A stretch of DNA of 64,000 nucleotides. Origin: Azolla caroliniana (Eukaryota > Plantae > Polypodiophyta). Positions 9,730-59,150 of this stretch are shown piece by piece. Within the stretch, counting starts at the first letter, position 1. Each line of letters begins with the position of its first letter. Where the stretch lies: NCBI GenBank assembly GCA_043228905.1, contig JBHGNT010000013.1, positions 12,648,001 through 12,712,000 of the forward strand, given 5' to 3'. A model generated the notes under the pieces. That model saw nothing but the letters and a program-made list of their open reading frames with translations. It was not told the DNA's origin and did not search any database. A program made the position numbers and the translations under genes.

Positions 9730-9984
9730 TCATATATGGGATCCATCACTTTTCAGAGATACGCTTTCCCCTTCAGACCCACCCGATGAGCTTTGTGAGG
9801 TCTCATCCTCATCGTCACTAGCAACCAATGCATTATCTTCATCCAATTGCAATCCAATGTCACCGTGATTATGAGACAGACTCATTGTTTGTCTCTGTGT
9901 TGCGTCAACAAACACATCTGGGATCTTCTCTTTTATTATTTGGATTGTAGTCTGTCTTAGATGGCCTGTTTTGGTCAAGGAGAA
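9730..9984 (-). pseudogene. C-terminal fragment of a probable transposon protein with acidic tail
   Basis: FSLTKTGHLRQTTIQIIKEK resembles AFTLTKVGCLRTTMIEIIKK at about 55165-55225 (+). Cut by the LTR at 9985. Confidence 0.5.
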
Positions 9985-24810: not shown

Positions 24811-25029
24811 GCCATTGGTCGGTCTTGGATCGCCTCCTCAACTGTTGGATCCAACAGAGTGAAATCCTCTACTGTTCGGTCTTGGATTGCAATAACTTTT
24901 CTGTCTATTGATTATCTTGTGTATTGTTGTGTCTAATCTTGTGTATTGTGTGGAATATTTTTGTGTATTGTTGTTGCCCATAGCCATCTTTAATACTTGT
25001 TTTTTTTTCTGGAAATTTAGGGTTTTAAC

Positions 25030-29446: not shown

Positions 29447-32400
29447 TTATAAATTACCATTGGAAATGTCTACAAATCTCCTATAAACAACTAAGCTCTT
29501 GCTAGTCAGTGGAACGAGTCTACATATATTATCCGCATATTGAGCTCGGTATGGAGTCCACAACCATGCACCTAGTTAGCAGCTCACTGTTTGCACCAGG
29601 TACTGTTCAGGCATTTCCTCGGGTAGAATGAGACAGCATCTCCGAATATTGAAGTAGTGTCGGAAATGTTCTGTATCCAAAATCAATGTATTGTCAGCAT
29701 TATATTCAGGCCAAGTAGCCCAAAAATCAAAAAGCCTCTTGAATCTTGCAGCTTCCATCTGCTCACAATTTTCTCGTGCCCATTGACCTTTAAAACGACT
29801 TTGCCATTTTGGGAAGAATCTTGCCAAACACTTCCACACATCTGATTTTGGTTTTTCACTCCAAATAAACAAATCGAAGTACTCCACAGCCCACTCTAGA
29901 AACTGATTTGCGTCCCTCCTTGGCTGCATATATCTCACACTCATCAAGACTTTATCAAGCTCCAAGATCAAGGCTCTTCGCTCGACTTCTAGTGGTTTAG
30001 GTTTCCATTCCTGAAACTGAGCCGCTGTTACACCATTTTCTGGTAGGATACGATCAATCTCAATCAGCTCAGGTTCGGCTGACACAACTGGTGTCCTTTT
30101 CCTCTTTAAACCCCTAGTCGACTGTGTTGGGCCTAGCTTCACATTCTGGTGCTCTTGTTTTGTCGACTTAGTTATCAATCCTTGGATTACCTCAGTGCAT
30201 GTAGCTACTGTTCTGCTCGATATCAGTCCACTGGTATCACATGTTGCATCTACCTGCAACACCAAGTCATCCGTGCTACATGCTGCATCTACCTGCAACA
30301 CCAAGTCATCCGTGCTACATGCTGTATCTACCTGCAACACCAAGTCATCCGTGCTACATGCTGCATCTACCTGCAACACCAAGTCATCCGTGCTACATGC
30401 TGTATCTACCTGCAACACCAAGTCATCCGTGCTACATGCTTGATCAACTTGTGTGACCAGATCACTTGTGTCAGTTGCTACATCTACTTTCAAGATGGGG
30501 CCCTTTAAACATGCCGCAACATCAACAGTATCCACACTGCCATTGGCCTTACGAGCAATAGAATCAAACCCTTTAGACTCTGCAACATCAGAAAACACCA
30601 ACATATTCACACTCACAAAGTAACTACTAGTCTCACAAAACAATATCCTGAACATCAAAGAGTTTTAGTCATAGAACAACACTCTTCAAATTATCTTGGA
30701 AAAACATCATAGAGTTCCATTACATAATGTGGATCAAGCAACAACCAATCTGAGGTTTTACTTGTCCAACAGGATAGTAAAACTTCATAAAACCCTAGCA
30801 AAATCCCTAAGCTAACAATCATATCCAACTAAACAGTATTTCGCTCCACTACGTCTGGGCCCCTTGACCGAGTAACTGGTCTTGTTCCCGATCGTGGCCC
30901 CTTCTTCAGCCTTTTTCTGGTTGGTTCCCCATTTAGCCTTGCTTCTAGGACCCAATGCGCAAGTGTGTCCTCCTCCGACAACCTTCCCATCGCCTCAGTA
31001 GCTAATTGCACATCAGCCGTTTCTTGAACTAGCTTTTCAAGTACAGAGGGATCTGTTTGGACATTTTCAGTAGTTGGGCTCGGTGGGGTGGAATCAAGGT
31101 CTTGAGACTCGAAGAAATGTTGCATCAAGTGTTCATAAACACTGTTGTTGTGAACCTCAGTTTTACATGTTGTTTCCACTATTTCATGGCATTTCACATC
31201 GTTGCCTAATTCAGTACACTGTTCCAAAAGAATAGGGTGCAGCTGATCTGAAGGAGATGTGATAGCAGGACTCTTACTTTCAGCCACATTGGCAGTAGTA
31301 TCCTCATCTGTTGCAGCATCATCAGCACCAGACACATCATGTGCCGTCCTTAATCCACAAGATTCTACAATAACATGACAGTTATTTAGGATAGCTAATT
31401 AGCTACTTTACTAAACTATGGTAGAAGCTAGGATAGCTAATTAGCTAGTACGATAGCTAATTAGCTAGTATGATAGCTAATTAGGTACTTTACTCAACTA
31501 TGGTAGTAGTTAGGATAGCTAATTAGGTACTTTACTCAACTATGGTAGTAGTTAGGATAGCTTATTAGCTACTAGGACAGCTAATTAGCTGCCAGTAGCT
31601 AATTAGCTACTAGGATAGCTAATTAGCTGCCAGTAGCTAATTAGCTACTAGGATAGCTTATTAGCTACTTTACACAACTATGGCAGTAGCTACTAGGATA
31701 GCTAATTCGCTAGGATAGCTAATTCGCTAGTAGGATAGCTAATTAGTTGCCAGCAGCTAATTAGCTAGTAGGATAGCTAATTAGCTAGTAGGATAGCTAA
31801 TTAGCTAGTAGGATAGCTAATTAGCTACTAGGATAGCTAATTAGTTGCCAGTAGCTAATTAGCTAGTAGGATAGCTAATTAGGTACTTTACTCAACTATG
31901 GTAGTAGCTAATTAGCTAGTAGGATAGCTAATTAGGTACTTTACTCAACTATGGTAGTAGCTAATTAGCTAGTAGGATAGCTAATTAGGTACTTTACTCA
32001 ACTATGGTAGTAGCTAATTAGCTAGTAGGATAGCTAATTAGCTACTAGGATAGCTAATTAGCTGCTAGTAGCTAATTAGCTACTAGGATAGCTTATTAGC
32101 TACTTTACACAACTATGGCAGTAACTAATTAGTTACTAGGATAGCTAATTAGTTGCCAGTGGCTAATTAGCTAGTAGGATACCTAATTAGCTTTTTTACA
32201 CAACTATAGTACTAGCTAATTAGCTAGTACCATAGCTAATTACCTACTAGGATAGCTAATTAGCTAGTAGGATAGCTTATTAGCTACTTTACACAACTAT
32301 AGTAGTAGCTAGGATAGCTAATTAGCTACTATGGTAGCTAATTAGCTACTTTACTCAACTATGGTAGTAGCTAGGATAGCTAATTAGCTACTTTACTAAC

Positions 32401-35099
32401 TATGGTAGTAGCTAGGATAGCTAATTAGCTACTTTACTAACTATGGTGGTAGCTAGGATAGCTAATTAGCTACAATGAAAGCTAATTAGCTACTTTCTCA
32501 ACTATGTAGTAGCTAGGATAGCTTATTAGCTACTAGGACAGCTAATTAGCTGCCAGTATCTAATTAGCTACTAGGATAGCTAATTAGCTGCCAGTAGCTA
32601 ATTAGCTACTAGGATAGCTTATTAGCTACTTTACACAACTATGTCAGTAGCTAATTAGCTACTATGATAGCTAATTAGCTAGTAGGATAGCTAATTAGCT
32701 TTTTTACACAACTATGGTACTAGCTAATTAGCTAGTACCATAGCTAACTAGCTACTAGGATAGCTTATTAGCTACTTTACACAACTATGTCAGTAGCTAA
32801 TTAGCTACTATGATAGCTAATTAGCTAGTAGGATAGCTAATTAGCTAGTAGGATAGCTAATTAGTTGCCAGTAGCTAATTAGCTAGTAGGATAGCTAATT
32901 AGCTTTTTTACACAACTATGGTACTAGCTAATTAGCTAGTACCATAGCTAACTAGCTACTAGGATAGCTTATTAGCTACTTTACACAACTATGGCAGTAG
33001 CTAATTAGTTACTAGGATAGCTAATTAGTTGCCAGTGGCTAATTAGCTAGTAGGATAGCTATTTAGCTTTTTTACACAACTATGGTACTAGGATAGCTAA
33101 TTAGCTAGTAGCTCATTAGCTGCCAGTAGCTAATTAGCTAGTAGGATAGCTAATTAGAAAAGACTAAGCTTATTAGCTACAGTATGGTATACCTGTTTGT
33201 TTTCTCCACTCATTTGGTAGAGTTGTACTGCAATCTCCCAAACAGAATGCAGCAATTCGACAGGCATGTTGAAAACAAAGCAGATGGTATGTGTGGTTGC
33301 ATGGTTGTAGGTGAACCAACAAAGACGCAGTTTTGTCCTCCACACCTAACCCGCAAGCGATGCAACGTGCTTGAACTGTCAATAAATCATTTTCTGGTTC
33401 TACTTCATTTGGTAAGGGAGCAAGAATGTTCAGGTCCAAATCCTGTCTGGTCCTTACCATTCCCTCCACAAAATGTAGCTTCTTCTTAAGGCAGCTAACT
33501 ACCTGTTCTTGATGAATGTATTGTTCCTTCAACGCAACAGAGAAATTTACCGATTAATTATTCTTGTTGTTGAAAGATACACCAACTTTGCTCAGGAATC
33601 GTTAACTTACTTGAAGCTTATCCAAATTGTAATCTGCAACAGTATTTACACCTAGAAGGTCCAGGTTCATTGAAAGAACCTGGATCTCTATTTGCAGTTC
33701 TATTTTACGCTGGGGATCCAGTGGCCCCTCTAATTCAAGCTCCTGTTGCGCAACCTATTCCAGATAATGCTTGATTAGCACATTTTACCCGTTATTTATA
33801 ACACAATCACATACCAGCAAAACAATAGTTACCTGAATCTTATTTCTAATTGTTGTAACAACAGAAGTAACTTTGCTCTCCATTGCAGAAGCCATTGTGG
33901 CTTTCTCTAAATCAGTCTTAAAAAATGCCAATGTCTCACAGGCTTCATGGACATTTTTTAGCATATAGCTAACCAATGTCTCACCTGTATCATCGACATT
34001 GGCTTTCCTTGGGTGTCGGTGTGGTGTATGCCCCTGGTCTTGCTGGGAGTCGGCAGTTGCATCAACAGCTGCCATGCTCCAAAATCTATCTATTTTTTGT
34101 GCCAAGGTCCCCATCTTTCGGCATCTTTTTACCGATGCCTCACCATAGACTGCCCAAGCTACCCTATACATTTCAGGGTCTCTAGATTCCTTCGCTGTTT
34201 TGCAGTACTCATATGCAAATGCTCTAGCAAATGAAACTGACAACTCATTGTTGACTGGGATCTCCTGATGAACTTTCTGGTGCAGTCTCATGCAGTCATC
34301 GTACAAGTCGGCTCGTACATGCTTCAGCTTGACCTTGCCTTTGACTCTAGGCACTGTATATACTGTCATCCAGTCTATATCACTGATCAATTTATCACTT
34401 AGGACAGCAGGGTCAACACCCTCGAGTGACAGACCATAGGTGTTGTGGAAGTCCTCCTTTGTCTCACAAAATTTTGCGAAGTTTAGCACTCTCGTATACG
34501 GAGGAACGAGCCATCTGAAATATCATTTCAGAAATCAGAAATAGTGCAAAATCAGAATATGTGAGAATCAAAAACCCCAATCAACAACAACAAAAATGGT
34601 GCAAAATCTTTAACTTAGCAAATCAGAAACCCTAATCATAATTTGTATTCAGAAATTTGAAATCAGAAACCCTAATCAAAATCTGTAATCAGAAGTTTGA
34701 AATCAGAAACCCTAATCAAAATCTGTAATCAGAAGTTTGTAACCAGAAACCTTATTCAGAAATTCTAATCAGAAATTTATAATCAAAATCCCTAATCAGA
34801 AATTTCAATCAGAAACCCTAATAAAAAATTTCAATCACAAACCCTAATCAGAAATCCTAAGCAGAAATTTATAAACAAAAACCCTATTCAGAAATTCTAA
34901 TTTGTAATCAAAATTTGTAACCAGAAACCCTATTCAGAAATTCTAATCAGAAATTTATAATCAAAAACCCTAATCAGAAATTTCAATCACAAACCCTAAT
35001 CAGAAATTTCAATCACAAACCGTAATCACTAAAGACAGGATTAAACACAAAAAAAGTAATATAAACACACCTGTTGCTACTCCCCGATTTGCGAGACAT
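29447..35099 (-). CDS. Multi-exon transposon cargo gene: N-terminal unknown domain, helical/coiled segment, RING-like finger, 13-aa repeats, degenerate FCP1/NIF (HAD) phosphatase-like domain
   Basis: Phase-compatible GT-AG exons 35099-35071, 34514-33833, 33742-33611, about 33526-33193, 31364-31278, 30579-29447 (TAA at 29576 looks premature). CIAC..PCNHTYHLLC..C..C; LILELDKVL..FL..FDLFIWS..W.RENC..FKRL..W..YNADNTLILD. Confidence 0.68.
30237..30441 (-). repeat. 39-bp coding tandem repeat (TDDLVLQVD[T/A]ACS) x5
   Basis: Near-perfect in-frame repeat in ORF 29576-30658. Confidence 0.95.
31390..33180. repeat. Second TAGCTAATTAGCTA satellite, in the cargo-gene intron
   Basis: Same palindrome with spacers GTAGGA, CTAGGA and CTTTACTCAACTATGGTAG. 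Confidence 0.97.
34621..35030. repeat. Telo-box-containing (AAACCCTAAT) tandem repeats in the first intron of the cargo gene
   Basis: More than 10 copies of CAGAAACCCTAATC-like units with about 26-31 bp period. Confidence 0.9.
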
Positions 35100-38000
35100 C
35101 CTTGTATGGGACTCCAAGGACTTCGCCCTATTCGATTTTGGGGAAATATGAATCGGCACCAAAGTTCAGACAGTAGTCAAAAATAAAAAACAAATGTTTG
35201 GGGTTTCTGTAACTGAAACATACCTGGACGATGATCGAGCGGGTTCTGTGTTGTAGCTCTCAATCTGCAATGTCGATTTTTTGCTATTGCGGGAGCTACG
35301 TCTGCGTTCGTGCTCTGAGTACTCCATCTGCGTTCAAAATCAGACTTAGGCTAAACAGGAAATTGATGACATTGAAGTCGACCTTAGATGATGGTGATAT
35401 TCCCCAAGTTCCACTACGTCTGAAACAGAAGTTCAAATATTTGAGTTTTTTCATAAATTAGTTTTTCAAATATTTGATTTTCCCACAAGAAAGACTAGCT
35501 AAACAAATAGCTAATTAGCTATGGCCATTTTAGTAGCTAATTAGCTATAATAGTGTTTCCACTCGCATGCTTTTACCCTGTCATGATTATAAAAATATGA
35601 TTAGTATTGTCATGTATCGAGACCGAACCATGTCGGTTCGGTCCCAAGTCGAACCAAGACACATCAAGAAAGCACTAGAGTTAGTTAGAGGTTGAATCAA
35701 GAATGTAACTAAAGGAACATAAATGTATAAATAGAGCGAATGATGAATGGAAACGAGAGGAGAATTTGATTCTAAGTTGTGTACATCACATTGGTGGAGA
35801 AGATGGGCAATTCATAAAAAGTTGCCGTTGTTGCAGAACAGAGATCTGGAACAAGTCGCTTCCATAGCAAAACAGTGAGCCCAAATCACGCAATTGTGCA
35901 ACAAATTTGCGCACAGAGATGCAAAAATCAGACTTCGATAGCAACATGAGTATGTAGCCGGAGTTTGTGGAACAACATTCATCAAGCGCTGCAAATGACC
36001 AAATGTTTCAAGCCATAACTACCATGATGATGCAGGTAAATCATACAAATCAAACACTAATGAATTGGTTAACCAATCAGTCACAGTTAACAGCCAAACC
36101 TGAGAAACAAAAAGGTTCAAGAATGTGTCCGCAATCTTTCTCTGGACTTCCAACGGAGGACATTCTGGCCTGGTTGGATCATTTCGAGAATGTAGTAGGA
36201 TATCATGAGTGAGATGATAGGCAGAAAGCACTCGAGCTTCGCACGGTTGTAGAGCATGTGGCTGCAACCTGTTCATCCAGTAGCCTGAAGAGATAAAACG
36301 CGATTGGCCATACCTACACGAGCAATTAGTGCAGACATTCACCAACAATGACGTCACTCAAACAACACTGCAATAGTTGGACACTCTACACCAACAGCCA
36401 CCTGAACCAGTGGCACAATTTCCGGTCAAGTTAAAGCAATTATTGTTAAGGGTAGATCCACATATGAAAGAGACTATGAAACTCTATTTCTTACTACCTC
36501 AATTATGCCATGATATATCCAGGCGAGTGAAAGATCAAGGACCAACAACATTTCAAATGGTGGTACAGATTGCGTAACGCATAGAGTCTCCAGGCTACAT
36601 CGAATTGCAACGTGCACCTATACAATCACAACAAATTAGCCAAAAAATTCCAATGGAACCCACAGTAACTCCAATGGAGATTGATGTGCAAAATGCTCAG
36701 TTTAATACAAAAAAGAACTTATCAGATTGTGACAGCCAAGGAAGACCATGATGTTTCTATTGCAAATCGTATGGGCACATAAAGAAACATTGTAGAAAAT
36801 TTGCAGCATCAAAGCATCATTAGAATGCACAGATACATCTAGCAGATTCAACTTCACTCGCCGAAGTACCGGGAAACGGCAACACTACATGTTGACGAAA
36901 GAGCAACTATCGCACTTTCAGGCCGCTACCTCTTCCAGTCGCATTGTTTGTTCCACGATGGCACGCATTCATAACCAACCTATGAAACATTATTAGATTC
37001 AGGAAGTACAATTTCATCAATTAGTTTAGATTTAGTAAATTCATTGCACTTACCCACATCTAGTGCACCCCTTATTAATATCGTTTTTGGAGATAAACAA
37101 AAACTGTATCAGTCATCAACTCATGCACACTGCACATTCGTACTAGCACAACACACATTCGTACATTCATTGTATGTACTGCCAAAACAACTTTTTTCTT
37201 TAACATGAGGATGTGATTGGTTTGTGAAGCATGGCGCTCAGCTGCATTATGAGGTTCGTCCTACCTCATAATAAACCATTCACCACGATCCCCTTACTTA
37301 GCGCACCACATGTTAGTACACAGGTCATCCATACACAGATCCATGTCAAACCATTAAAGTCATGTCTAGCAGATCTACGACACTTACTCAAGTCGTTTCC
37401 ATCAATTTTCTGTAAGACTAAAAAAATAGCATAAGTAAATCTACCAGTTCAACATACCATTCTGACAACCGATGCTCCTCTAGTTCGGATGGCAACGTGG
37501 CGGTGATCCCCTCTCGACCACCAAAAGATCGCCACAGTAGTCCAAGATATGCTGGAAAAATATATTATTGAGCCATCAACTAGTCAATGGGTATCAAAAC
37601 CCCATTTAGTTTGCAAAAGAAGATGGATCATTCCGGTTTTGCATCGATTTCAGGCAGTTAAATAAGTTGACGAACCATGACAGGTACCCACTTCCTAGGA
37701 TTGACGACTTGCTAGACCAGTTAGGACATTCCAAATATTTCACATCCTTGGACCTGGCTTCTGGCGACTGGCAGATTCCGCTATGCAAAGAAGACAAGCA
37801 TAAAACAACATTTCGGACACAACACGGACTGTATCAGTTTAAGCACATGCCATTTGGACTATCAAATGTTGGCAGCACATTTCAGAGGATGGCAAACAAT
37901 ATTTTCCAAGACTTGATTTTTCAAGGTGTTGTTTTGGTCTATCTAGATGACATATTGATTCACACAGATAGCTGGCCAAAACACATTAAGATATTACGTG

Positions 38001-40519: not shown

Positions 40520-43500
40520 ATGTCGGAGGCAAACCTAAGCCGCCATTACGGCGCCCAATCGCATCACGCGGTCTCGGCCACCCGCCCGACGCCCTGAGCC
40601 AGTCAAAGGAACTTCCGACTCAGCGGCCCACCGGTTGCAATCCTTGCCACCCGATACCCAATCGCGAGTTGATTCCGAACCGATCTCCCCGCCAAGCACT
40701 CCAGAGGTCACCCGACCTGACCCTAACCCATTTCCGGCTTTACCTAAAGACCCGATCTCAATATCGTGCCTTACCCTTACCCACGATATACAGATGGCCC
40801 TGACGCGGAATCGCACACCCGTGCTTTCGTGTCCACATGGCAGGCCAACAACTCGACGTAGTTGCTTGATGGTATTCCCGCCTCGACGTGGGGAGGTCAC
40901 AACGTTCCAAGACGTCCGAACAAAGTTTCTAGAATTATTTCCGGCAATTCTTTTCCATGAGCTAAGAACCTCACGAGACGGTTGCCTAGTTCATGATCCG
41001 ATTTCAGGATCTCTATCGACAACTGGCCGACGATGTCTCTGCACATCACATTCCGAATACCTTCCTTTCCAGCCTACGGAAGCCTCTACAGATGACCCTC
41101 GCACTTACCAACTTCTCTAACCAGACAATCGAGCAAGTCATCGCACACGTCCTCACCATCGATCGAACAGAGCATAGCACAGCTTTCTCCATGGGCTCTT
41201 TGCAAAGCACCCTTCCTCAGGAGGACAATCGTTTCCAACAAGCCCTCCAATGCACAGCCTGATCGAGCTGGGGCCATCTGGCTCTTGAGTGCCCTCACCG
41301 GCCACATTGTTCAGTCCCGATCTCACACGATCGAACAATGTGAATACAACATGCTCAACCACACAACGACGGCTCCGGTTCGCTAGATCGAGCCTCAAAA
41401 TACATACTCACGGCAGGACGAACGTCAAGTCTACCGACATCGGGATAACGAGCAACCACGATGCCCAGACCATCAGCGCCGCGACGACGACTACCGCTGC
41501 AACGACGATTACCGCCGCAACGACGACCACGACTGCCACGACAACCGCAAGAGATCGGACGACCGCCGTGACCAATATAGAGCAAACGACGAGTATGACC
41601 GGTACGATCAACGGTATTCACGAAACAATAGAAGAAACTCTTATAGAGGTTCGCGAAACAATCGATGGCATAACGACAATCGTCGTCGGGACCCTCCTCC
41701 AAATGTACCACACAACTCTCTTCCCCATAACGTGCCACGAGCCAACACACCTACACAAGCGGCCGGGAACCACTCACACCTTCTCCCACACACTGAGCAC
41801 GGTGACACCAGCAACTCGGCATCAGTTACCTGCTTTAAGTGTAACCAACCCGGCCACTACGCTACCCAATGCCCAACCAGGGACCACGGCAAGGCCCCGA
41901 CCGTGAATATTATTATGGTCGACGTTCAACACATCACTACACGCAGCAAAACTTAGGCCATCAAATGGCAAGTACAAGATGACATCCGACAAACATCCAA
42001 GGAATGAATTGACACCGCCAACAAAAGCAACGTGGAGCGGATGCACACAGAGATGCAGGATGTGACCATCGGAGCACCACAGTCCACAGGACCATCCACC
42101 GCGGCAGAAGATGACCATCTGTGGGACGCCCTTACCAGTTCCAGGATCTCGCTGCCATTGCATAAGTTTTTACCGCTTATGCCACGCTTTTGGGATACCT
42201 TGGCTACGCTCACGATTAACGACAAATCAGTCGTACCCGCTGTTAACCTGACAGAGCTAGGGACGGGCCCACCCATCATGGATTCCCAGAATTCAGCCAT
42301 GAAAATCATGATTAAGGGACGCGAACTTCATGGATGCATAATCAACGGTGGCTCCGGCGTGAACGTCATCAGCGAGGCCACATGGCACACACTTGATTTG
42401 AACCAATGGGAACCTTGCCCCTTTTGTCTTCGGATGACCGATCAGCGATCGGTTCGCCCCATAGGGTTAATCCGCCACCTTGACTTCACGTTAGGAGGCC
42501 ACATGTTCACTATCTCGACACTCGTATTATGCCTCAAAGCTTCGGGCGCCTACCCAACGCTGCTTGGATGACCCTGGCTGCGCACAACAAATATTAAGCA
42601 ACATTGGCAGCGAAATATGATCTCTTTCCGCCTGGGGAAGACCAAGGTATGGATAATAACAGAAGAACACCTAACCACACCCCACAACACCACATTCTTA
42701 TACACGGAAGGGGTACACATGCTCGATGGGTTAGCTGACGACGAGGTGAATGACTTCCTGGAAGATCATCCCACTATCATACCCCTCTTCGAAATAGATG
42801 CCATCTCGGCCTTTGGCACACCCCCAAACGAGGATGTCACGAAAGATTCACTTCCCCAGGACGAGCCAGATTCAACAACTAGTACGGAATTATGACATGC
42901 TCGGAACGCGTTTGAATGCGAACTCGCCATCTCCCAGCGAGTCAAAGCATCAACGCTCAAGTCACTCAACCTCGGCTCCGACGAGAACCCGCGTACACTA
43001 CAAATCACTAACAACTTACCATCCGACGAACGGTTAGCCCTCATACGCCTACTCACGGATTATCAGGATGTATTCGCATGGTCTTACACTTATATGAAGG
43101 GATTGGATCCCCAATATTACCTGACACTCGGCCGGTCCAACAACGACGATACCGTATGAACCCCAACTACGCGGCTAAGGTCAAAGAGGAGATCGACAAG
43201 CTCCTCCGATTAGGTTTTATATGCCCAATAAAAAGAGCCACATGGTTAAGCCCAATAGTCGTCGTCCCCAAGAAAAACGGGAAAATCCGTGTTTGCATTG
43301 ATTACCGCAAAATCAATGCCGCGACAGTCACGGATGGGTTTCCTCTTCCGTTCACGGATAGTGTCCTCAACACGGTGGCTGGTCATGAATGCTATAGTTT
43401 TCTCCATGGGTTCAATGGCTATAACCAAATCAGAATGCACCCGGACGATCAGGAGAAAACGACGTTTGTCACGGAATGGGGTGTCTTCGTGGACGAGGTA

Positions 43501-45770
43501 ATGATGTTCGGATTAAAAATGGCACTGGCCACATTTCAACGCATCATCACCGAGATTTTCAACGAATATATCCTGACATTCATGCAAGTTTTCGCCGATG
43601 ACTTTGCCGTGTATGGCCAGTGGCTGGAGCATATGACCCAGTTACGCCTCTATCTCGATCGATGTCGACAAGCTCGGTTGAGCTTAAATCCAGCAAAATG
43701 CGCGTTCTTGGTGACAAGCGGCAACCTGCTCGGGCACATAGTCAATCAGGAAGGTATCGCCATGGACCCGGATAAAGTGCAAGCCATTCTGAATGCTCCC
43801 GCGCCCTCTACCGCGAAGGCCCTCAGCCGATTCCTGGGCCAAATCAGATGGCATAGCCGGATGTTACGACACCTGGCCGATTTCGCGACTCCATTGCACG
43901 CGACTGTGCATAGACTCCCATTTCAGTGGTCTTCGATAGAAGACGGGCCTTACCAATCCTTGAAGGTAATGCTCTCCCATGCCCCCGTTGTTCAACCACC
44001 AGTCTGGTCAGAACCTTTTCACGTCTTCGTAGACGCATCAGATATAGCATCGGCAGCACACTCATGCAGCGCACACCACCAAATTGGTATCGACGACTCT
44101 CGGCCGTGTAGAAGAACTACTCAACAACTGAACGTGAGGCCCTCAGTATGGTTTACAACATCAACAAATTTGGGCATTACCTCTTGGGCTGGAAATTCAC
44201 ATTCCACGTAGATCACTCGACTCTCCTATACTTGGTTAATAAGCAGGCCCTCACAGGTCACTTGGCCCGATGGATGCTCCTGCTGCAAATTCAGCACCAA
44301 CCTGGAGTCCAACACGTCCTAGCTAACTACCCGAGCCGCCTTGAGTGAGGAGAACCAGCCGAGTCCATGTACGATGATCTACCCAACACCACCCTTTTTA
44401 GTCTCGCAATGGTGCCAGACACACATGAAGATAAATGGATCACGAAAAGGACCCATTTCCTCAGCACCGGCCTTCCTCCCGACCACATGACCCTCTAAGC
44501 TCGGAAACGACTAGTTATCAAGAGCCGCAACTTTTGTCTCGTCTCCGACACCCTCTACCAGAAAGGCTCGGACGGCATCTGGCACCGTGCAATCCGTCAA
44601 TTTGAGAAACACGCAATCCTCCAAGAGGCACATCACGGAATCGCGGGGGGACATTACGCTGGAGAGGCACGTCAAGAAAAATATGGCAGAGTGGCCCTAC
44701 AACGAAAAAAGATGCTCATGAATTCTATCGACATTGCAATTTGTGTCAATGCATGGGACAACTGACCAAGCAAGCCCGGATGCCGCACCAATCCATTCTC
44801 CCGTTAGAACCATTTCAAAAGTGGGGGTTAGATTTTGTGGGACCTTTCAAACCAGTCGTGGCTCGCACCGGTAACAAATATATAATCATGGCCATGGAAT
44901 ATTGCACAAAATGGGTCAAGGCTAAGGCACTATGGGATAACACGGCTGCATCCACGGCAAAGTTCATTTACGAACATCTATGGTGTTGATATGGATGCCC
45001 AATTGAGCTCATTAGTGACCAAGGTGGGCCTTTTATAAACCACATAATTCAGGAGCTCACTACACACTAAGCGATCATACATAAGAAAAGTACACCATAC
45101 TATCCTCAGGCAAACGGATTGGCGGAATCTACTAATAAAATTTTGCAAACAATATTGAAAAAGATCGTCAATGAGAACCACACCGATTCAGATGAGAAGC
45201 TCCAGAGTGCATTATGGGCGTATTGCACCACATTTAAAACTAGCATTCAATCTACACCCTTTCGGATGGCCTTTGGTTTGGAAGCAATCATGCCGATCTA
45301 GTTTCGAGTTTCGAGTCTCCGAGTTCAGGTTAAGGAGAGGCTACCCGAGGCCCAATCAGAGCAATATCGACTCAAACAACTCCTCGAACTCGGCGAACAC
45401 CGAGTGGCCAGTATGGCTCAACTGGAACAATGCCAACGACAACGCAAAGCCTTCGTCGATCGTCACCGGAAAGGTACGGTGAAAGCACTTACCATCGGCA
45501 AACTGGTACTAGTCTTCCAAACACGACTCGGTGCCATGCCGGGGAAATTACGATTCCGATGGATAGGCCCCTTCTGGATAGTTGACGAGTTTAACGGCAC
45601 ATTCCAACTCGGCACACTTGTTGGAGACATCGTTGAAAGCTGGGTAAATGGATTCCAACTTTGACCGTACCAAGGAAATACCCCAGATAATCCCTTCGCC
45701 GAGTCCCACGGCACGGACCAGTTCACAGACGACGCCATGAAGGAGCCCACGCGCCCCCATCGGTAAAATA
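40520..45770 (+). pseudogene. gag-pol: gag-pol of the nested element (2 zinc knuckles, protease, RT, RNase H, integrase), disrupted
   Basis: CFKCNQPGHYATQC, IINGGSGVN, WLSPIVVVPKKNGKIRVCIDYR, GYNQI, FADDF, VDASD, WGLDFVGP, YYPQANG, RWIGPF. Confidence 0.9.
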
Positions 45771-46279
45771 ATGACCTACCCACCAAAATAATATATTAGG
45801 AATAGTGTTAGCATTTAAATTAGCCTTACCTAAACTACCTAACAAATCACCCCAAATCACGATATTTTCTTAGGCGCACAAACTAGTCACCTTCACATTA
45901 AAATAGAATATTTAAAGGAACATGCACACCTCACAAGGCATAGGACTCCTGTGATGTGTGGCCATAATACCTTATTATGGCAGCAACAACCAAGAATCTA
46001 AAGGATCTTCTCCCTACACAAAATCCTAGGCGGTCACATAAAAGAAGCTACCCCGCATACAACGCGCCCACTCACACAGAAGCTTTCTTGCCTTCACAAC
46101 CTTCAAGCTCCCAAGCTCTCTCTCGTTCTCATCGCTCCCGCAAACAGGCCTTCTCTTGCCCTCCTAGCCCTTGCCCAAAACAACGGTTTCCTCCCCAACA
46201 ATCTTCTTCCATCTCTCTATCTCACCCTCGTCTCAACGCTCCCCCCCACTCTCCCTGTCAGCAAACCTTCGAGTCCACC

Positions 46280-49200
46280 ATGCCTCTCTCAGCATCGCAG
46301 GAAACCCATTCTTGGCTACAACAACGAGGATTAGGTGGCTACTTACGAGTCAGTGCACCCTGACACCCAAGAAATAGCACGCAGAATCCACCTTGACACA
46401 ATAACCAACAACATGATTCACGCTACTCTGGACCTTACGCGAGGCGGAGAACATGAAGTCGAGATTCTTCCTCACACGACCCTCAAGGAATACTTTGGGA
46501 TGTATTCGATGTCGGGAAAAGCTTACCGCACTTACGTAGGACCAAACAAGTCTTTTGGGGAGATCACCCGAATTTTGATGGAATACGCCTTTGTGCATTC
46601 AAATCCCACGAGTATGCCACAGAATAAGGCTGCCATCATCATTAGAGAGTACGAAGGCGACAAAGTAGATTGGGGAATCATCATCGGCGAAGGAGTTCGT
46701 GCAGCACTAGAGTCTTTTCAATCCGGTAAGCGATTGCTACTTGTGATGAATCATTACCTCACAGTCCTCTACCCACCTCCTTCATTTTCCCCTTGTCGCA
46801 TCCTTACCTCTCCACCACCACCACGGAAACAATGGGAGAAGATTCTGGCATTAACCCAGGAAGAATGGGAAGACCACTCGGCCGTTCGGAATCCTACTCC
46901 CACTTCGGCACCACCCCCATCAAAAACACAGAAACAACAAGCAATATCAGTGACCTGTGTCGAATGGGATGAGGCCGAGGAGCCCGTCACTGAGGATGTC
47001 ACCATACGACAGAAAACACCAAGGACATCGATGCCCTCTCCACAACCGAGCCCGCAACCCCCCAACCAGCAGCCCTCAAGCATACGGCAACAAAAGAGGA
47101 AACAAGTTGAGGAGCCAACACCATCGGCCCCAGACTCACAGGACTAGCCGAAAACGAAACAACGCATCAATCGCGAGTCAACCACAAAAACCGAGGGGAC
47201 GGAGCGTCAGAAATCAAAGGAGGCCAGCCCGACCTTCATGGCCATGGTACCGGTAGAGTCGTCGCTCCAAGTAGGTAGGATCGAGCATGGACAAACCACG
47301 CAGATATCAGAGGAGGATGTCATCGGTTACAAAGACCTCCCCGCGGAGGCATATGAGTTCAGTGCACTACTTCGACTGGGCACAACATATGAGTTTATGG
47401 ATTTCCTCGCGCGTGCCCAAGTAGCTGCTACCGCTCGTATGGTCGAGGAGTACGCGGAAACAAAGATGATCCAACACGCACTAATGGGAAAACTCGAACC
47501 TCAAGAGGATCGAGCCTTATAGAAGATAGGTTGGAAGAAGCAAGCATAGAATGCATCTCTCCTCATGGAGCTACCAGATCTGAACACGGCCTTAGTCGAG
47601 GCATATCGAAATCTACACCACACAACTCGGGCAGCCAAGGACATGGCCTGACATATCAAAATGACACAGGAGCAAGCCAAACGGGCCACCGAGCTATGGC
47701 AAGCCGCCGAGCAGAAACTGGTGTCATTGGAGCAACAACATCGAGAACAGTCGACCGTAAGCCTCCATGCCCCGAGTAACGATGTCTCACCAGCACCTCT
47801 TCCGAACCTGAGCCTGAGTGATACTGTTACCGAAGCACACAACAACGACACAACTCACCCCAGGGTAGCCACGGTCGACGCAAGCACAATGACGAATTCG
47901 GTACAGACAAGCGAGACATCGTCACTGGCAGATAAAAGCCTGCACCCCCAAACCAGCCACGCCTCCACGCAAACGGTGCTGCCAACTGTCGTCAACACCA
48001 ACGAAACATCTCTAACGGAAAACAGCTGACCAGGCACGCTTCCACGCAAACGCCACGACCGCCTGTCATCGTGGAAATATCTACACAAACGGACAGGGAA
48101 CCCCATCCCCGGAACTAGCAAGTTGCAACCCAGACAAGGCCTCCCGTCCATGACTACCAAGACGAGCTCATGGCCCAGATCGCTCAGGCCGAGTTAGCAG
48201 AACAAAACCACAACAACACTATTGGCCAACTACGGGAACAAGTCGCGGGCCGCGAAGCTGACCTCAAGCGACTACTTGCTGAAAGCTCGGTCGCACTCAA
48301 AGCACAAGAAAGAGAGGTGATGAACCTTCAAGTCGCTATCACCGAGGCCAAAGAACGATTCATCAAAGAAGCAGAGAGGAATAGCCAACGGGAATGCGAG
48401 CTATTCGCAGACAACCCGGAATTACGCCGTCAACAAAGGGAATTACAAGAATTGGCCAACGAACACATGCAAAAGTGGAGGATCTCTGAAGAGCAAAGGG
48501 AGCAAATTTCTGATGCTTATCACCAGTTGCAAACAGAGGACGTCGCCACTAGGGAACGACAATGGGACGCTTGGAGAAAGGAAGTGGATGAAATTGTAGC
48601 TCAGCTCACCAAATGTTACGAGCAGACAATCACGCTCGTAACCGCAAAAGCAAAGGATAACCAAGCTACTCTGGAGCTCCTCATCCGCAAATGCCAAGAA
48701 GACGCCAAGGCCGCAAGGGAGGAAGTGGAAATTCACCGAGCTAGCATCGGCATGAATGGTACTAAAATAAAGATCCTGATCAACAAATATCTCCAACAAC
48801 TCACCAAGAAGATCGAGGAAACGCTCAACTGTGTATGGCAGGAATGGTCAACCCAAACTGTTGAACTACACATATTACGCACGGACGCCGAGAACCGAAG
48901 GAAGGAGGGCCGAGGGTTCTACAAGATGGATGACACCAGCATCCAGACCCTCCATGAAGTCTTTACTGAGGAATATCATACCTTAGAAGAATCCCACACC
49001 CCGACAATCGAGCAACTTCTAGAGGAATTCAACGACGATCAAATGATGTTCCATTTAGAAGCCGAAGCTTACGAGGAGGAACGCCTAGCTACCATGACTA
49101 ACAGAGCTCCCATGACCGATGACCATGAACTAGAGCCGCCAACAACAACCACCACGGAGGCCAGACAAGAGGGACCCGCCCCTACAAACACCCACATCAC

Positions 49201-49381
49201 AACCGAGCAACAAACTACGACCACAACCCTGCCTAAATTGGAACCAACAGAGGGTGGTCTACGTGACGTCATAGTCATCCCGGACTCGGCAGCAAAACCC
49301 CCATCACCAACCCACCTTCCCAGCAGCCTGACCAACCCCACGCCCTGGAGGATATCCTCAGCAGATTGTATAAAAGGGTAA
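46280..49381 (+). pseudogene. Extra sense ORF downstream of pol: plant-transposon-protein-like domain, TQT cluster, long coiled coil
   Basis: Fragments 46335-47147 (EGDKVDWGIII), 47238-48029 and 48170-49381 (E/Q/K-rich heptads) joined across frameshifts and stops. Confidence 0.7.
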
Positions 49382-50137
49382 TTTTGTAATTTTTTTTTGG
49401 CAAAATCCATTGTTATCCCTCCACTTTGTGAATCGTGGGTCTGACGTACAAAGTCCTGTGCCACAAGCGTGCCAGGTGTTGTCCATAGGCCAGAAATATA
49501 AAATACAAAATATGTAAACTCTCGGGTAGGTAGAAAAGTAGGTGAGGAGATAGGTAGAACTAAAATAGTCGAGTTTTTTAGCCCTCACAATCAGCCAACG
49601 GCTCGGCCATGTCTAAAGAAGAAAACTATATAAACCGAGATCTGCATACCTCGAGAAGGAGAGATAACTAGATTAGTTAGCAGGATTAATATCGTAGCAC
49701 GGAGCTCTACACAAAACTATTTCCAGCTGAGAGCCGTGTACTGTATTCAATGTGAGCTTTCTCATTTAATATAAATCTCGTTGTTACTGTTTCTTCATCT
49801 ATGTATTCTTCCCGTACTCGTAAACCGAGCTACATCTATGTCTACCGGGTTGTAGCTAGTGTACGCTCCCCGTTCCCCTAACGTCTTCTCAGTGTAGAAG
49901 AAGCCTCCAAGTAACACGACCCCTTGATACCGATATCCTGTGGGCTCATTGAAGGTGTTTTCTGCAGAAACGGTTAACAACAAGTATAGTAGCAAGGGCG
50001 CTCCTGCAACGCATCATTTTTCCCCATAGGTGTCCACAACAACTCCTTTCAGATCAGGGATCTCAATTTCAAAGTGAAGTTCTCAAAGTACTTGCACAAA
50101 GTTTGGGGATCAAGCAATTATTTACCTCACCATACTA

Positions 50138-52747: not shown

Positions 52748-54835
52748 TGTTGAGAGACAAGCTCAAGATTCAGTGTGTAATTGGGTGCGTAAACTGTTAC
52801 GCAAACCAGTGCGCAACGAGAAGCCGTAGCGGTGCGTAAACTGCGAGGCCATTGGAAAGATATTCCGCGTAGGAATATATTTTGGGAGTTAGTGTAGAGC
52901 TCAGTTATGAGCATTGAAATACGTGTCAGTACTTCTGTCAGTCCGTATGGACTTGTATAAAAGTGCTCACTAAGCACATTCTATGTACAGACTGAGTATT
53001 ATTTTTTGAATACAGTTGTGTGTTTTCTCCCTCTCTTCGTCTCTCCCGCGTACTGTGTGTGTCCAAGCCTTTCCATTAAACTTATGTTTTCCTACATTCT
53101 GCTTTCTGTTGCTTCCGCACGTTGTTCTTTTCACATGGTATCAAAGCGCGAGGGTTGAGAACCTCTGCAACCGACCTTAGCTCGAGAAAGAAAACCTAAC
53201 CTTCGTAAAGAACAAGAAAAACAAAATGGATAGATGCATGGCTAGCTCGCTTCCCACAGAGAAGCTCTACAGAAACAACTACGCGTCTTGGTCCTACAAG
53301 ATGCACCAGTACCTGCTCAGGCATGGATACTGGAGCTATGTCGACGGAGCAAATGACACAGCACCCGATTCGACACACAAAGACTTCCCGGCTTGGGAAT
53401 AGTCCGCGAGTAGAGTTCTCTACTGCTTCGCGTCCTGTGTGGGCGAACAGCTTCTAAGCTATATTCGGGATGCGAAAACGCCGAAGGATGCTTGGGGAAA
53501 TCTGAAAAAGATTTTCGTCGCAAGCACCACAACTAGAAAGCTCCAACTCCGATAGGAGTTGAGCAACTTGCGACAACGCGATTTGTCGGTGGCTGATTAC
53601 ACCTCGAAGATCAAAGATATATGCGACTCTTTAGCCTCCATCGATGTGAATGTTGAGAAAGGCGAAATGGTGCAGATCTATCTCGGGCGACTAGCGTCGA
53701 AGTTCGGAGCGTTCCGAACTGCTATACGCACACGGGAGAATGCGCCATTGTTTTTCGACCTATAGTCGATGTTCCTTATAGAGGAGAACCACGCGGGTGA
53801 GTCAATGAGTACATACACCGATAGCAAGATGTTGTACACAGAGGGAGAGAGGCCCCATGTTCATGGCGGACAAGGCGAGTCGGTGCGCAATGGAAGCGGC
53901 CGACAGGATGAAGGAAGAAGGCACCGAAGTGATGCCGACAGCAATTCCGAACCCTCCGGAAACACGGGGAGTCGAGGCGACGAGAACCAACAAGGGAAAT
54001 CCATTGCGGAATGTTGGTACTATGGCAAGAAAGGCCACAAGGAGAGTGAGTGCTAGAAGAAGTGCGCCGATTTGGAGAAAACCGGATCTGGATCCGGACA
54101 AACCGACAAAGGAAATCGGCAACGATTGCACTACGCCGAAGGATCCGAAAAAGTCTGAAAGGGGGTAGCCTTCGTGACAAGACACGAAGCGAACTCGATG
54201 AACAAGAACACCCCGAAATCGGACGAGGTGTGATACATGGACTCCGGCGCGTCAAACCACATGACAAGCCATAAGTATTGGTTCTCATACCTTGAGAAAC
54301 CGATGCAACCGAGAGTAGTCGCAACAGGAGACGACACTCCGCATCCAATCGAGAATGTCAGTGAAGTTCCCCTGAGCCATGTCGGGCAAAAAGGGAAACT
54401 CATGATTGTGTTGCACGTCCCAACAATCACGAAGAATCTAGTGTCGATTGGGCAGATCGCCGACTAGGGGATGCAAGTCCAGTTCACGCATCTCGGGTGC
54501 TTCATCGAGGAGGAAGGCCAAGTTATTGTGCAAGGGCGCAGAGACGGGAGGATGTTTATCCTTGACACCAATGACGTTGGAACCGCAATGTTCGCAAAAG
54601 GACAAAAATTCACGTCGGAAATCGACTTGTGGCACAAGCGGATAGGCCACGTCAACTATCAAAGGCTTCAGGACTTGCAATCGAAACAAGTTGTATTCGG
54701 ATTGCCCAAATTCAGTGGCCGGAAGGCCCAAATTTGTGAAGCCTACCAGCTAGGGAAGCAACACCAACTTCCTTTCCCCAACAAGCGTAACCGGAGCCGG
54801 AACAAGCTCGACTTCATACATTTGGATGTATTGGT
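52748..54835 (+). mobile_element. Truncated Ty1/copia retrotransposon (5' LTR, gag, protease, integrase N-terminus)
   Basis: LTR ends TTCACA at 53135, PBS TGGTATCAAAGC. NYASWSYKMHQYL gag, MDSGASNHMT protease, LWHKRIGHVN, IHLDV then truncation. LTR start uncertain. Confidence 0.88.
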
Positions 54836-54839
54836 AATT

Positions 54840-55420
54840 GAACCTTGCAAATGCCATTCACGTGGTGTATAAAATATTCTCATGGTTCATAATCACCACG
54901 TCAAGCACTTAATGTTGATCTTCATAGTTTGGTTCATCTACAACAGAGAAACATTTATGTGGAACTAAGGATGATAACATGAGCATAACTCAGGTGACAA
55001 TGAAACTTGCAAGAACTCAAGGTGGGGATATTAATAGCTACACATGTAGATGGCCATCACCTAGGGCACCAATTCTGCACTAGTAAAGTTTTGGACGTGG
55101 TGATGGATTAAACTTCTGTAATACATCTATCATTGACATTAGTGAGGTGGATATCATTGTGTATGCCTTTACACTGACAAAAGTTGGATGTTTAAGGACG
55201 ACGATGATAGAAATAATAAAAAAGATATTACCAAGACTAGAAGATATCTCAAATTGAAGGCAAACAAGATTTAGTACACACAATTTGGAGACACCATTTG
55301 GTGAAGACAATGATTTGATTGGTACATTTGAAAATGAGGAGGAAGAGTCACAATTGTATATTAGCTATAGTAGTGATTCTCATGAAAGGAATGATGATAG
55401 TAATGCAAATAACTCTTAAA
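54840..55420 (+). pseudogene. C-terminal fragment of the same protein family as 9730-9984
   Basis: YAFTLTKVGCLRTTMIEIIKK followed by an acidic tail. Confidence 0.45.
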
Positions 55421-55770
55421 TGTATTTTTTGTGTAACGATATGTAAGAAATTTAGACAATATTTTATCAAATGAAATAAAAAAGTTGATTGTTTTGAAAT
55501 CTTTCGCTTATGATTTCGTTAGGATCTAAAATACTACTAAATGTAATTTCTCCATAAAAATACACAAAGTTACTTTTCGTACTTGGCCAAAATTTGGCAT
55601 TTTTCAATTTTACCAAATGGTGAAAATTTTAGCTTTTTCATCAAGTTTTTGAGAACATGTGATACTGGTATCAAGGTGTTTTGTGAAACGGCAAAAAAAG
55701 CCCCAAAATCAAATGTAATATTCCTTATCCTTCCATTTGTGCACGATCCTTCCACTTGTGAACACGAACG

Positions 55771-57500
55771 TGCTTTTACTCTATTCAACGGCCACCCATC
55801 GATCTGGAGACAGGAAGATGGGCTCTAGAAATTAGAGAGTCACATTCAGTGCATGTGCAGAACTTAAAAAGCAAAATGAAGATTAATCCACATGCGATTG
55901 TAGTGCCATTCTTAGTAATGGTCGAGCCAGATCAATGCCCTATTGTTGATGACTTCAAGTACAGTTCGGCAGATGACCACACATATTATGTGATTGGAGG
56001 ATCCCACTCTACTAAAGCCCAACATTAAGTGGTCAAGGAGTATCCTCTTACCCCTTTCTTCAAGTATGCAGAATTTAAAGTGTATGCATGCCTTACACAT
56101 GAAGAAGCCAAGTTGTTAGCTTGGGAACATAACAACAACAATGACTATAGACAAAAGATGTCATGTATCGAGCGCATCAGGTTCTTCCATCACGACTACC
56201 TTGATGTGTTGCAAAAATTTGGTCCTCCGCTGCAAACTTGATTGCGACGACAATGTCTGATTCAAGTGGGGATAGCAGTTGACAAAAGCACTAGAAAATA
56301 TGACTCATGGTTTCAACTTGCCTTTAGAACAGGGGAGGTGTGGGACCGCCAAGATCGCATTTTTAGTATGTGGGAGCGTCAAGGAATAAAGGGTCAAAAA
56401 TCAAAGAAAGCTAAGCTCGCCCCACAGGTGGAGATGAAATCTAAGTCACGTAAAAGTGACTTAGGAATTGAAGAGTTAGCCGAAAATATGAAGCTACTTC
56501 CTTGGCGGTCACTGCAAGGAATTAAGGATGAAAGATTATTAATATCTGTATTATCAAGAGTGGCCGCCAAGGAGTTTAGCCTTGACAAAATGGTCACAGA
56601 GGTTCAAAAGTGAGTCATATATGTGCATGTATCATTTTGATTTGATTGCTTTGTTGATTTGTTCTTTTTTCTAATTTCAGTTTCTTTTATTTTTTAGCCG
56701 TAAGGTGTATATGATGATTCAAAAGCTGATGATGAAAAAATTGTCCCTACCTATGTGGGAAGAAGTGGAGCAATCTTGCCCAAAAACATCATCTTACAAG
56801 GCTCTTGAAGAATTCTTTATCGTGTTTAGAGAATGGGTATTGTATGTTCTACAAAAATTAATTGATTTTTGGATAATGGGTTTCTTCTTACAAATTTTAT
56901 AATTACAGAAACCACCTCATTCAAAGAAGAATAATGACAGCAATGAAGGCATACCTAGTGCCTTCATCACCCATTTGGAACAAGCTAAATACAAGAAACG
57001 TATGACAAAAGTAAAGGAGCTTGAGATGCCTGACAACTTAGATACCGTCAAAAGCTTTTTGCACAAGAGTGATCCTTTCCAACAATTGTATTATAGTGTA
57101 TATAATGGTGATGTGGGTAATATGCTTGACATATTACCCAAGAGACATTATACATTGCTCATCGCGGATATACCGTATGACTTCCGAATATCAGGCTCGA
57201 CATACGACGATGTGCCATACAAATATCCGCAAATAGAGAAGATGGTTAAGGACTTCACGGAGCTAACCCTACCACCATTATGGCATATTGTTATATTTCA
57301 CAGTATGGGTCGGGCGTTATCAATCACGACTGCATTGAAGTCGAGATGCCATGCCACCGAACATATGCATTGGTAAGCTTTATGTTACTATATATTTAAT
57401 GTATGGATTCTATGTTGCTTACAACATATTTATTAACTTGTTTCGATTCCATTATACAATAGGGTTAAAACTAACATAACTCATAAGGATACTATTAAAT
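55771..57500 (+). pseudogene. ParB/Srx-like domain fused to a beta-class DNA N6-adenine/N4-cytosine methyltransferase (intron-containing, truncated)
   Basis: IRESHSVHVQNLKSKM..PFLVMV..YYVIGGSHS..KVYACLTHEEAKLLAWEHN (55831-56133), then after two GT-AG introns VYNGDVGNMLDILP..LLIADIPY (DIPY 57167-57178). Two in-frame stops; motif I (FxGxG) not reached. Confidence 0.7.
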
Positions 57501-57669: not shown

Positions 57670-59150
57670 CTCTCTTTTTTTGGTGAAAACAAACAATTAT
57701 ATTAATAAAAGTGTGTGAAAAACACTACTTACAATGGGTGTCAAAATGGAGTTTGGTCACCCACTAACTACACTCCATGGGTAGTGGAACATGTGGAATT
57801 GCCAATAGGCAAGATGAACACTCCACTGAGGAAAGAATTTCCAGTTCCTCCAATAAAGAAAATTGTCACATTAGTACTCCATTCAACTTTCATAGATATG
57901 CTTTCACTCCATGTCTACCATCGAATACAAAAGCATTGCGCATGTTCCAATTATGACGCAATCCCCCATATCTTAGAAAATGGAAAAACGATCTCCATCT
58001 CTGATCTTGGGTCAACTTGTGTACATTCTGCAAACACCAACTATTTAGACGTCAAATAACAGCGTGATAAAACTTGCCAAATTTGTGAAATATAACTCCA
58101 AATCTGACAAGCAATTGGATATTGTATAAACCGATGCGTACTATCTTCTATTTGAACAATGCAAAAGAAGCAATTACCCGTTGCTAGTACACAACGCATT
58201 AGAGCTAATCCTCCAATCAAAACTCTCCAAATGAAGACCTTTGCTACAAGTGGCAATTTAGAATGCCAACTACATTTTAAGATCTGCCACCATCCATGAT
58301 AAGATTTGCATGTTTTCCATTCTTCTTTAGCCTTAGATGATAGTCCAAGAGACTCAACAGAGCAATGGTACAAAAGATTATTAGTTACTTGTAACAACGA
58401 TGTTTGACCCCGTAAACACCAATCAATCTATGGTTGTGTTCTTGCTTGTAGAGGTAAAAGACCTTGCATCAATGCAATATTTTGTAGTTGTTGCCAGATA
58501 GACTCATCATTAGGAGGGATGCGTAATAATTGTCGCGCTTCAACAAACTCTAAAATTGGCTAAGAGGGCATACTTGACAAACAGATATTGTGAGGGCAAA
58601 ATCTAATGTAACTCACCCATTAAGCATTACTCGAAACACCGCATCTTGTCCTAATAAAAACACGAGGCTAGACATACGAGGTCCAAAGCCCATTGTATGC
58701 ATTAACCCAAAAACAAAGAACTAATTAACCTAATCATAAGCTTTCTTTCTCCAAATCTATTTGTACCATAATCAATTCTTGAGTGTTTCATGCATAATCC
58801 ATGGTCATTTAAACATTCAACATATTATGCAATATATTCCTGCCTGCAATAAAACCATATTGGGCGAGATCCATCAACTTTGGCAAATACTTTTTTAATC
58901 TATTTGCCAAGACCTTTGTGAATATCTTATGTCTTTTCATACCAAGTGTGTTCATATGCTCCCATCCTGGCCTCTACAACTTGTATCCCATAACACACAA
59001 AATCTTCAATTATTTGTAGCATTTGCTTGTGGAGATTACCGTACTTTACCCATTTGACTCATTAACTCTAGTAAAAATGGCCACAAAAATGCATGCTAAC
59101 AATCCACTCTTACCCAAACAAGGCATTCTTATTTCAATGAATCTCTCTTT
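57670..59150 (-). mobile_element. Degenerate L1-type LINE remnant
   Basis: zf-RVT (KVFIWR..CFFC..EDSTH) 58041-58397; RT piece KIFTKVLANRLKK..QYGFIAGR at about 58830-58930; T-run at about 57675. Confidence 0.8.

Follow-up and report, generated by a model that had tools for sequence, protein, structure and literature searches.

The window, a stretch of 64,000 nucleotides of Azolla caroliniana DNA, holds at 55775-57485 on the plus strand a dead internal fragment of a six-exon transposon passenger gene. We give a probability of roughly 0.6 to the reading as a whole, namely that this is the dead passenger of a Sola1-like element, and that the predicted ParB-methyltransferase docks on its own palindromes and methylates nearby DNA, most likely at adenine. 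The design is already published for a brown alga, as the available text of PMC12477816 describes it, and the streptophyte element is a new case of it.

The gene fragment in the window

Three GT-AG introns with consistent phases join the fragment into a single spliced frame that contains two stops and lacks motif I. All its parts lie on the plus strand. The first piece (55775/9-56609) is the 3' part of exon 2, the 5' part having been removed, and encodes a ParB-like domain followed by a helical, HTH-like region. In the alignment with paralogues, GSHS (55999-56010) occupies the position where ParB proteins have their arginine patch, and two premature stops, TAA at 56026-56028 and TGA at 56239-56241, interrupt the frame. 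An 88-bp intron (GTGAGT..TTTTAG, 56610-56697), whose position is shared with the paralogues, precedes an exon for a helical linker (56698-56836). After a second intron of 72 bp (GTATTG..TTACAG, 56837-56908) comes the exon that we call exon 3 (56909-57372), which encodes the N-terminal catalytic half of a beta-class methyltransferase and in which the paralogue alignment places motif IV, DIPY, at 57167-57178. A third intron of 90 bp (GTAAGC..CAATAG, 57373-57462) leads to a stub of 23 bases of the next exon (57463-57485), where homology stops, the motif I exon being absent.

The ParB and methyltransferase motifs quoted in an earlier note on this DNA are all present, in one frame spliced through GT-AG introns, and the copy is dead as the note had judged, with the TAA at 56026, the TGA at 56239 and the cut before motif I. 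Its extent of 55771-57500 does contain the gene fragment, but homology runs only from about 55775-55779 to 57485. We corrected the start because another element, a non-autonomous Sola1-like one of the family that we call B, is inserted into the exon and its end occupies 54832-55774.

Compared with an intact 960-aa paralogue, the fragment is 82% identical over 484 aligned codons and corresponds to residues 264-753. Motif I of this paralogue lies at residue 837, beyond the fragment, and the passenger gene has 260 more N-terminal residues and two more exons that the fragment lacks. These missing parts were not found in the 50 kb upstream or the 130 kb downstream of the window (244 kb around the copy). 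Pfam searches of the window pieces (P0001, P0002 and exon 2, and also exon 3) returned 0 families and a PHROGs search returned no family, so it is on intact relatives that the ParB and methyltransferase assignments are based. A search of the 523-Mb genome with exon 3 gave 1256 candidates, and the best 150 of them, which were scored, match with E<=1e-80, far beyond chance. A search for longer homologues with exon 3 alone gave none among 241 candidates, and the palindrome typical of the family (see below) was not found in the window beyond one match at chance level.

Other remnants surround the fragment. At 9431-9989 on the minus strand, a piece of about 560 bp comprises a decayed left terminal inverted repeat (TIR) and a transposase C-terminus of the same transposon subfamily; it lies 46 kb upstream of the gene fragment in matching orientation and may or may not belong to the same copy. 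The segments at 52771-54834, 57675-59060, 13786-20870 and 41300-49400 we take, from their motifs, to be copia-like, LINE-like and gypsy-like remnants.

The carrier transposon and its intact copies

The passenger gene is carried by a Sola1-like cut-and-paste DNA transposon, head to head with a DDD transposase gene. Genome comparison gives the element a length of 7.6-9 kb and TIRs of 33 bp. When the surroundings of five young copies, 40 kb each, were compared, they had in common a stretch with sharp limits that begins and ends with a 33-bp inverted repeat, and the first 29 bases of the TIR have 256 exact matches in the genome, against 0 for the control. We examined 22 loci, mostly chosen for exact ends and hence favouring young copies, and found both ends in 19. 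An exact 4-bp target duplication (TSD) flanks 16 of these 19 paired-TIR elements (in one case within a run of G), two have a five-base duplication and the remaining one an imperfect duplication (three of four bases). These elements are 7.5-7.8 kb long, with a mean identity of 97.9%. The transposase is an intronless frame of about 890 residues on the strand opposite to the passenger gene, with a match to DUF7869 (E 6e-44) and the triad DGMDQ..QLDN..GHTHDHID.

The arrangement recurs in other loci. In seven of eight further loci chosen by exon 3, the window's subfamily included, the transposase lies upstream and related TIRs are present. In a set of 80 metagenome loci, the transposase stands head to head with the passenger in 12 of the 13 that have at least 2 kb of upstream sequence; in one other locus it lies downstream in the same orientation. 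Since the metagenome loci come from one assembly series and are related, some being nearly identical to the family of this genome, they do not represent 80 independent cases or lineages; what they contribute is a wider range of subfamilies, with protein identities as low as about 50%. Carriage by a transposon, which the earlier note had judged probable, is thus borne out by TIRs, target duplications and the adjoining transposase. At one site (G000:C14:17409200-17433466), four transposase matches with identical scores recur at a spacing of 7924 bases, either a tandem array of whole elements or an assembly artefact.

We call the element Sola1-like, on sequence grounds, because the motifs of Sola2 differ and because of its counterpart in Ectocarpus, Sola1-1_Ec32, which according to the available text makes a 4-bp duplication, has termini that read AACCG and finds its best match in a moss Sola1 (PMC12477816). 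The termini of our element resemble those of Sola1-1_Ec32, and its 4-bp TSD is shared with the TSD lengths listed for Sola1-1_Ec32 and for Sola2. A Physcomitrella Sola1 appears in a review table (PMC9033089). Sola2 identity was rejected: in a comparison by eye with the Sola2 alignment in the PMC3627910 supplement, the transposase lacks the motifs DFAENY..QDEIQSxHW..DG..QYKN..ATSHGK. A Sola2-like transposase does occur elsewhere in the window, in pieces (25021-29077, plus strand), with an HTH exon and DFTENY..QNEIQSMHW..DGAASQFK..GSGHGKG. Minus-strand frames at 29576-36357 face it, one with a match to a NIF-like phosphatase (E 3.6e-6) and one weakly RING-like; together they possibly form a larger element with cargo.

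Intact paralogues with the motif DxFxGxG, which the earlier note had proposed to look for, do exist. Two 9-kb elements, M and N, are 99.4% alike and have both genes open, with a methyltransferase frame of 960 aa that retains all splice sites, and a transposase frame of 917-923 aa. In the young subfamily E, the methyltransferase frame and its splice sites are intact in 1 of 16 full-length copies and the transposase is open in 4 of 16, while none of the 16 has both genes intact. As to expression, of three sequencing runs whose contigs were compared with the gene, only one, not known to be RNA, covered it, and none showed exons joined across a GT-AG intron, which speaks neither for nor against transcription.

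To compare the majority sequence of E with M, we used our own Nei-Gojobori script. For the methyltransferase domain, pN was 0.051 and pS 0.583 (dN/dS about 0.05), and for the ParB core 0.032 and 0.80 (saturated); for the transposase they were 0.123 and 0.544 (dN/dS about 0.14). The passenger gene is hence under stronger purifying selection than the transposase, and its methyltransferase domain is 92% identical between the subfamilies while silent sites are 58% different. Furthermore, pairwise identities of transposase and passenger correlate across 10 elements (11 metagenome loci minus two with broken frames, plus M; Spearman 0.70, Mantel p 0.0006), and the trees of the two proteins have their main groups in common, though not every branch. 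Selection and co-divergence together argue that the element needs the passenger, which has been passed on together with the transposase.

The E copies also carry traces of the host's response. C-to-T changes amount to 0.038 per CG and 0.040 per CHG site but 0.004 per CHH site, and this roughly tenfold faster decay of CG and CHG argues that the copies are silenced by host 5mC.

Predicted domains of the passenger protein and related systems

The N-terminal part of the passenger protein is predicted to have a ParB/Noc fold. We modelled the product of exon 2 from a closely related copy (P0006), with a mean pLDDT of 65, and all 14 Foldseek matches at E<=0.001 are Noc, ParB or KorB (best E 3.5e-5). 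Structure alignment of P0006 gave a Z of 10.1 to PadC (rmsd 3.0, 100 residues aligned) and of 8.2 to pNOB8 ParB over 211 residues; that of its helical region to the KorB DNA-binding domain, Z 5.2, is within the range of common arrangements. The ParB assignment of the earlier note is thus supported by the Foldseek search that it proposed.

ParB CTPases of the Spo0J/Noc type have an arginine patch with the consensus GxRR. This is absent here, and GSHS stands in its place in 67 of 73 parsed loci, four of the other six being mis-parses, while distant homologues have residues of the GGHS/GNHS type. The GSHS noted earlier at this place is therefore really in the sequence, but it is not decay: we rejected that reading since GSHS is the normal state of intact copies, and loss of the arginine patch is a trait of the family. 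A ParB domain of this kind would likely serve dimerisation and loading and not act as a canonical CTPase.

Two further features of P0006 were seen. Residues 84-198, absent in the window, form a well-predicted N-terminal domain that is weakly PH-like (Z up to 5.8) and evolves faster than the remainder (pN 0.22). Residues 255-567 have language-model features like those of fungal DUF3723 (0.95-0.96 in the atlas, a lead) and lie also near a giant-virus cluster (0.90), 18% of whose members have ParB_N. DUF3723 is a conserved gene of Starships, according to the available text of 10.1101/2021.12.13.472469, and these sequence features suggest that it may be ParB-like; 20 of its members gave no Pfam match, and our literature search found no paper joining DUF3723 and ParB.

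The C-terminal part is predicted to be a beta-class amino-methyltransferase. Its motifs are in permuted order, with DIPY at about residue 675 and DLFSGTG at residue 837 of the intact 960-aa copy. Among 39 long loci, motif IV DIPY is kept in 39 and motif I (DxFxGxG) in 34. The motif I exon of an intact-type copy matches PF01555 with 38.1 bits (cut-off 26.7), and the Ginkgo homologues match it with E 8e-19 and 8e-18. The beta-class methyltransferase with a DPPY-like motif IV proposed in the earlier note is in line with these matches, the family's motif IV lacking the first proline. Neither of the outcomes that the note had named as refuting, the lack of a ParB or methyltransferase match and full-length homologues without motif I, was observed. 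A model of P0038, a distant, intronless, full-length homologue from outside the family with 28% identity to the window's exon 3 over 76 residues, has CcrM as its first fold match (E 1.9e-10), followed by M.BceJIV and M1.HpyAVI. The top fold matches are N6-adenine enzymes, in agreement with the sequence search, whose best matches are N6-adenine enzymes too.

In the available text of PMC8885841, a D in motif IV goes with N6-adenine enzymes and an S with N4-cytosine enzymes. Because the motif here is DIPY and not SPPY/TSPPY, 6mA is a better guess than 4mC. As to the chemistry, we consider 6mA probable, and 4mC or no DNA methylation each unlikely, to the same degree. An alternative that otherwise keeps our preferred reading, in which the enzyme would write 4mC, for example on the C of CGAT, and so block host 5mC there, must be rated unlikely. 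The invariant part of the palindromes described below does hold CG, 4mC is known in Marchantia sperm (10.1101/2021.02.12.428880, available text), a rotifer N4C enzyme is among the fold matches of P0038 (E 4e-7), and enzymes with this domain have changed more than once from 6mA to 4mC or back (PMC8885841, same text). Against these points stand the motif, the N6-adenine enzymes heading both searches, and the decay of CG in the palindromes, which proceeds as in the rest of the element.

Named proteins that have this architecture, whole or in part, occur in Chara braunii, Riccia sorocarpa, Adiantum nelumboides, Ceratopteris richardii and Ginkgo, and a profile search gave 694 representatives at E<=0.001. 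Most annotated homologues are partial and occur in several copies. The family that the earlier note put forward as a putative 4mC/6mA writer of this plant lineage is thus not confined to it. In one homologue the helical region is preceded by a SAM (sterile alpha motif) domain, and a Chara gene model joins two tandem copies (P0117 and P0024). Our search of the openly accessible literature found no land-plant report of a ParB-methyltransferase transposon design, though one may stand in subscription journals, Repbase or preprint supplements.

The closest published system is Sola1-1_Ec32. By its published description (PMC12477816, available text), it is a Sola1 with a 4-bp TSD and AAC-type termini, and encodes, on the strand opposite to the transposase, a protein of about 1100 aa with a ParB-like part and an N4C/N6A methyltransferase, which its authors propose to bind and mark its own element. 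It differs in belonging to a brown alga, in being 21.5 kb long with an imperfect 282-bp TIR and in having 2 intact copies, whereas the Azolla element belongs to a land plant, is 7.6-9 kb long with 33-bp TIRs and has several subfamilies with intact young copies; the available account contains no palindrome, selection or non-autonomous analysis. Self-binding is also proposed for the products of the accessory genes PAG2 and PAG3 in Plavaka elements of the red alga Bostrychia (10.1101/2025.02.11.637652, available text), DNA transposons with a ParB-like protein beside inverted-repeat arrays and a PF01555 methylase. These are EnSpm elements, however, in which two genes share the parts: one joins the ParB-like domain with a 2OG oxygenase, the other joins the methylase with a SET domain.

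Phage fusions of ParB_N and N6_N4_Mtase (ParB-terminase loci; phrog_67; PMC4738411, available text) have the same two domains in the same order, but measure about 400-480 aa and have no introns, no long helical middle and no PH-like N-terminus. Such fusions are the likely source of the gene. The nearest named atlas clusters are phage ParB + N6_N4_Mtase fusions (scores of 0.87-0.88, as leads only); since the phage matches are only 23-29% identical, no donor is identified. Land plants have few N6A methyltransferases, according to the same text (PMC4738411).

Marchantia DN4MT1 and rotifer N4CMT are likewise prokaryotic-type, beta-class (permuted) amino-methyltransferases in eukaryotes. As the texts searched describe them, they are host genes that write 4mC, with TSPPY and SPPY respectively, whereas the passenger is transposon-borne and has DIPY, a difference that excludes identity with either; N4CMT has a chromodomain, and no ParB domain is named there for DN4MT1 or N4CMT. 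Retrotransposons carrying DAM, a prokaryote-like adenine methyltransferase, with 6mA enriched on elements in some protists (10.64898/2026.05.21.726589), differ in being retroelements with an NPP motif, and the available text has 0 mentions of ParB or Sola.

Palindromes and the proposed mechanism

Intron 1 of the passenger gene contains the palindrome CGATGCA-N-TGCATCG, in two copies in the E majority sequence and in more than 15 in M. Exact sites number 769 genome-wide, against 0 for a control. In the 80 metagenome loci, 95 of 170 CGAT-N7-ATCG sites have fully complementary inner arms, against an expectation of about 1 in 64. Subfamilies differ in the inner letters with symmetry kept, which yields the 15-bp consensus CGATRC-NNN-GYATCG.

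The palindromes persist in elements that have lost the genes. Non-autonomous elements are many among 16 further loci, found through unpaired TIR or palindrome matches, and three short elements. One family of 1.8-2.3 kb (3 copies, 98% alike, each with its own duplication) consists of the two ends and a single 600-bp island that carries the sites, in 3 of 3 copies, and lacks the start codon; for that one event, a random 600-bp island would hold the palindromes with a chance of about 0.09. A 4-kb family has both genes reduced to scraps and keeps 3-8 sites in 9 of 9 copies; three of the nine carry insertions, and the six that were aligned are 90-98% alike. Family B, the Sola1-like family whose member cuts the fragment in the window, is 3.1-3.2 kb long when whole, has a 4-bp TSD and 1147 candidate matches in the genome, and carries 2-9 sites in all 4 copies measured (10 fetched). 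It has long internal inverted repeats and palindromes of the CGATACA type; whole copies lie in loci L177, L186 and L187, and at C781 it is likewise found inside an element of the window's family. That three families without both genes keep 2-9 sites points, at the level of sequence, to a cis site used in trans.

In the mechanism that we propose, the fusion protein would form a dimer through its ParB part and read CGATRC-NNN-GYATCG through the HTH-like region, acting in trans on any copy with palindromes. The enzyme would methylate nearby element DNA, 6mA being likelier than 4mC, and the mark or the bound protein may keep the divergent promoter region open or license transposition, in a host genome that puts 5mC on CG and CHG. 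What counts against our reading is that the transposase could be the palindrome reader. A bolder version strikes us as doubtful: streptophyte Sola1 would recognise itself in a ParB/parS-like manner, 6mA at palindromes would license transposition, so that elements without genes, parasitic on the others, would have to retain these sites, and the module would be the DUF3723 of Starships, an accessory of DNA transposons across kingdoms, and in seed-free plants a source of 6mA that has gone unnoticed.

We looked for protection from C-to-T decay near the palindromes and found none, the intron having 14 changes in 376 CG sites (0.037) against 0.038 elsewhere; aged copies thus show no local protection from host 5mC. 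Nor was co-variation seen between the recognition helix and the site, the presumed helix hardly differing between subfamilies.

The missing footprint suits an alternative in which the protein would be a binding or bridging factor of the transposition complex, its fold binding DNA without marking it, or in which the transposase would read the palindromes and the passenger act elsewhere. The gene-less families agree with it as well, since they keep the palindromes and would need a cis site for movement and not for transcription, as does the negative heterologous assay of other transposon-borne enzymes: adenine methyltransferases of retrotransposons did not produce 6mA when tried in E. coli (10.64898/2026.05.21.726589, available text). 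Such a factor would, however, hardly require the catalytic motifs that the family retains (IV in 39/39 and I in 34/39 long loci), with homologues as far as Chara, nor the 92% identity of the methyltransferase domain against 58% silent-site difference, and we hold this alternative to be unlikely. A captured host gene that rides along as neutral, Pack-type cargo, or a host methyltransferase domesticated in the manner of DN4MT1, would fit the canonical introns and the fact that Ceratopteris, Adiantum, Ginkgo, Riccia and Chara have homologues annotated as genes, but is very improbable and for this genome already largely refuted, given selection stronger than on the transposase, co-divergence with it, over a thousand candidate copies, and annotated homologues that are mostly multi-copy and partial, as elements would be.

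Under our preferred reading, and if the enzyme is active, land plants would have a transposon-encoded writer of 6mA (or 4mC), extending from Chara-grade ancestors to Ginkgo. Such a writer might counteract silencing and might account for some of the disputed non-5mC marks in plant DNA, and a site-directed methyltransferase with its own docking sequence is a possible tool. In their available text, the algal reports give the design in a few sentences, with no test; in this genome, what a test requires is at hand: intact elements of small size, a candidate site defined to 15 bp, and families of natural deletions in which the site is kept in cis. A second palindrome, TGATAC-NN-GTATCA, with a two-base spacer and usually single, occurs in loci L114, L123 and L148 and in family B.
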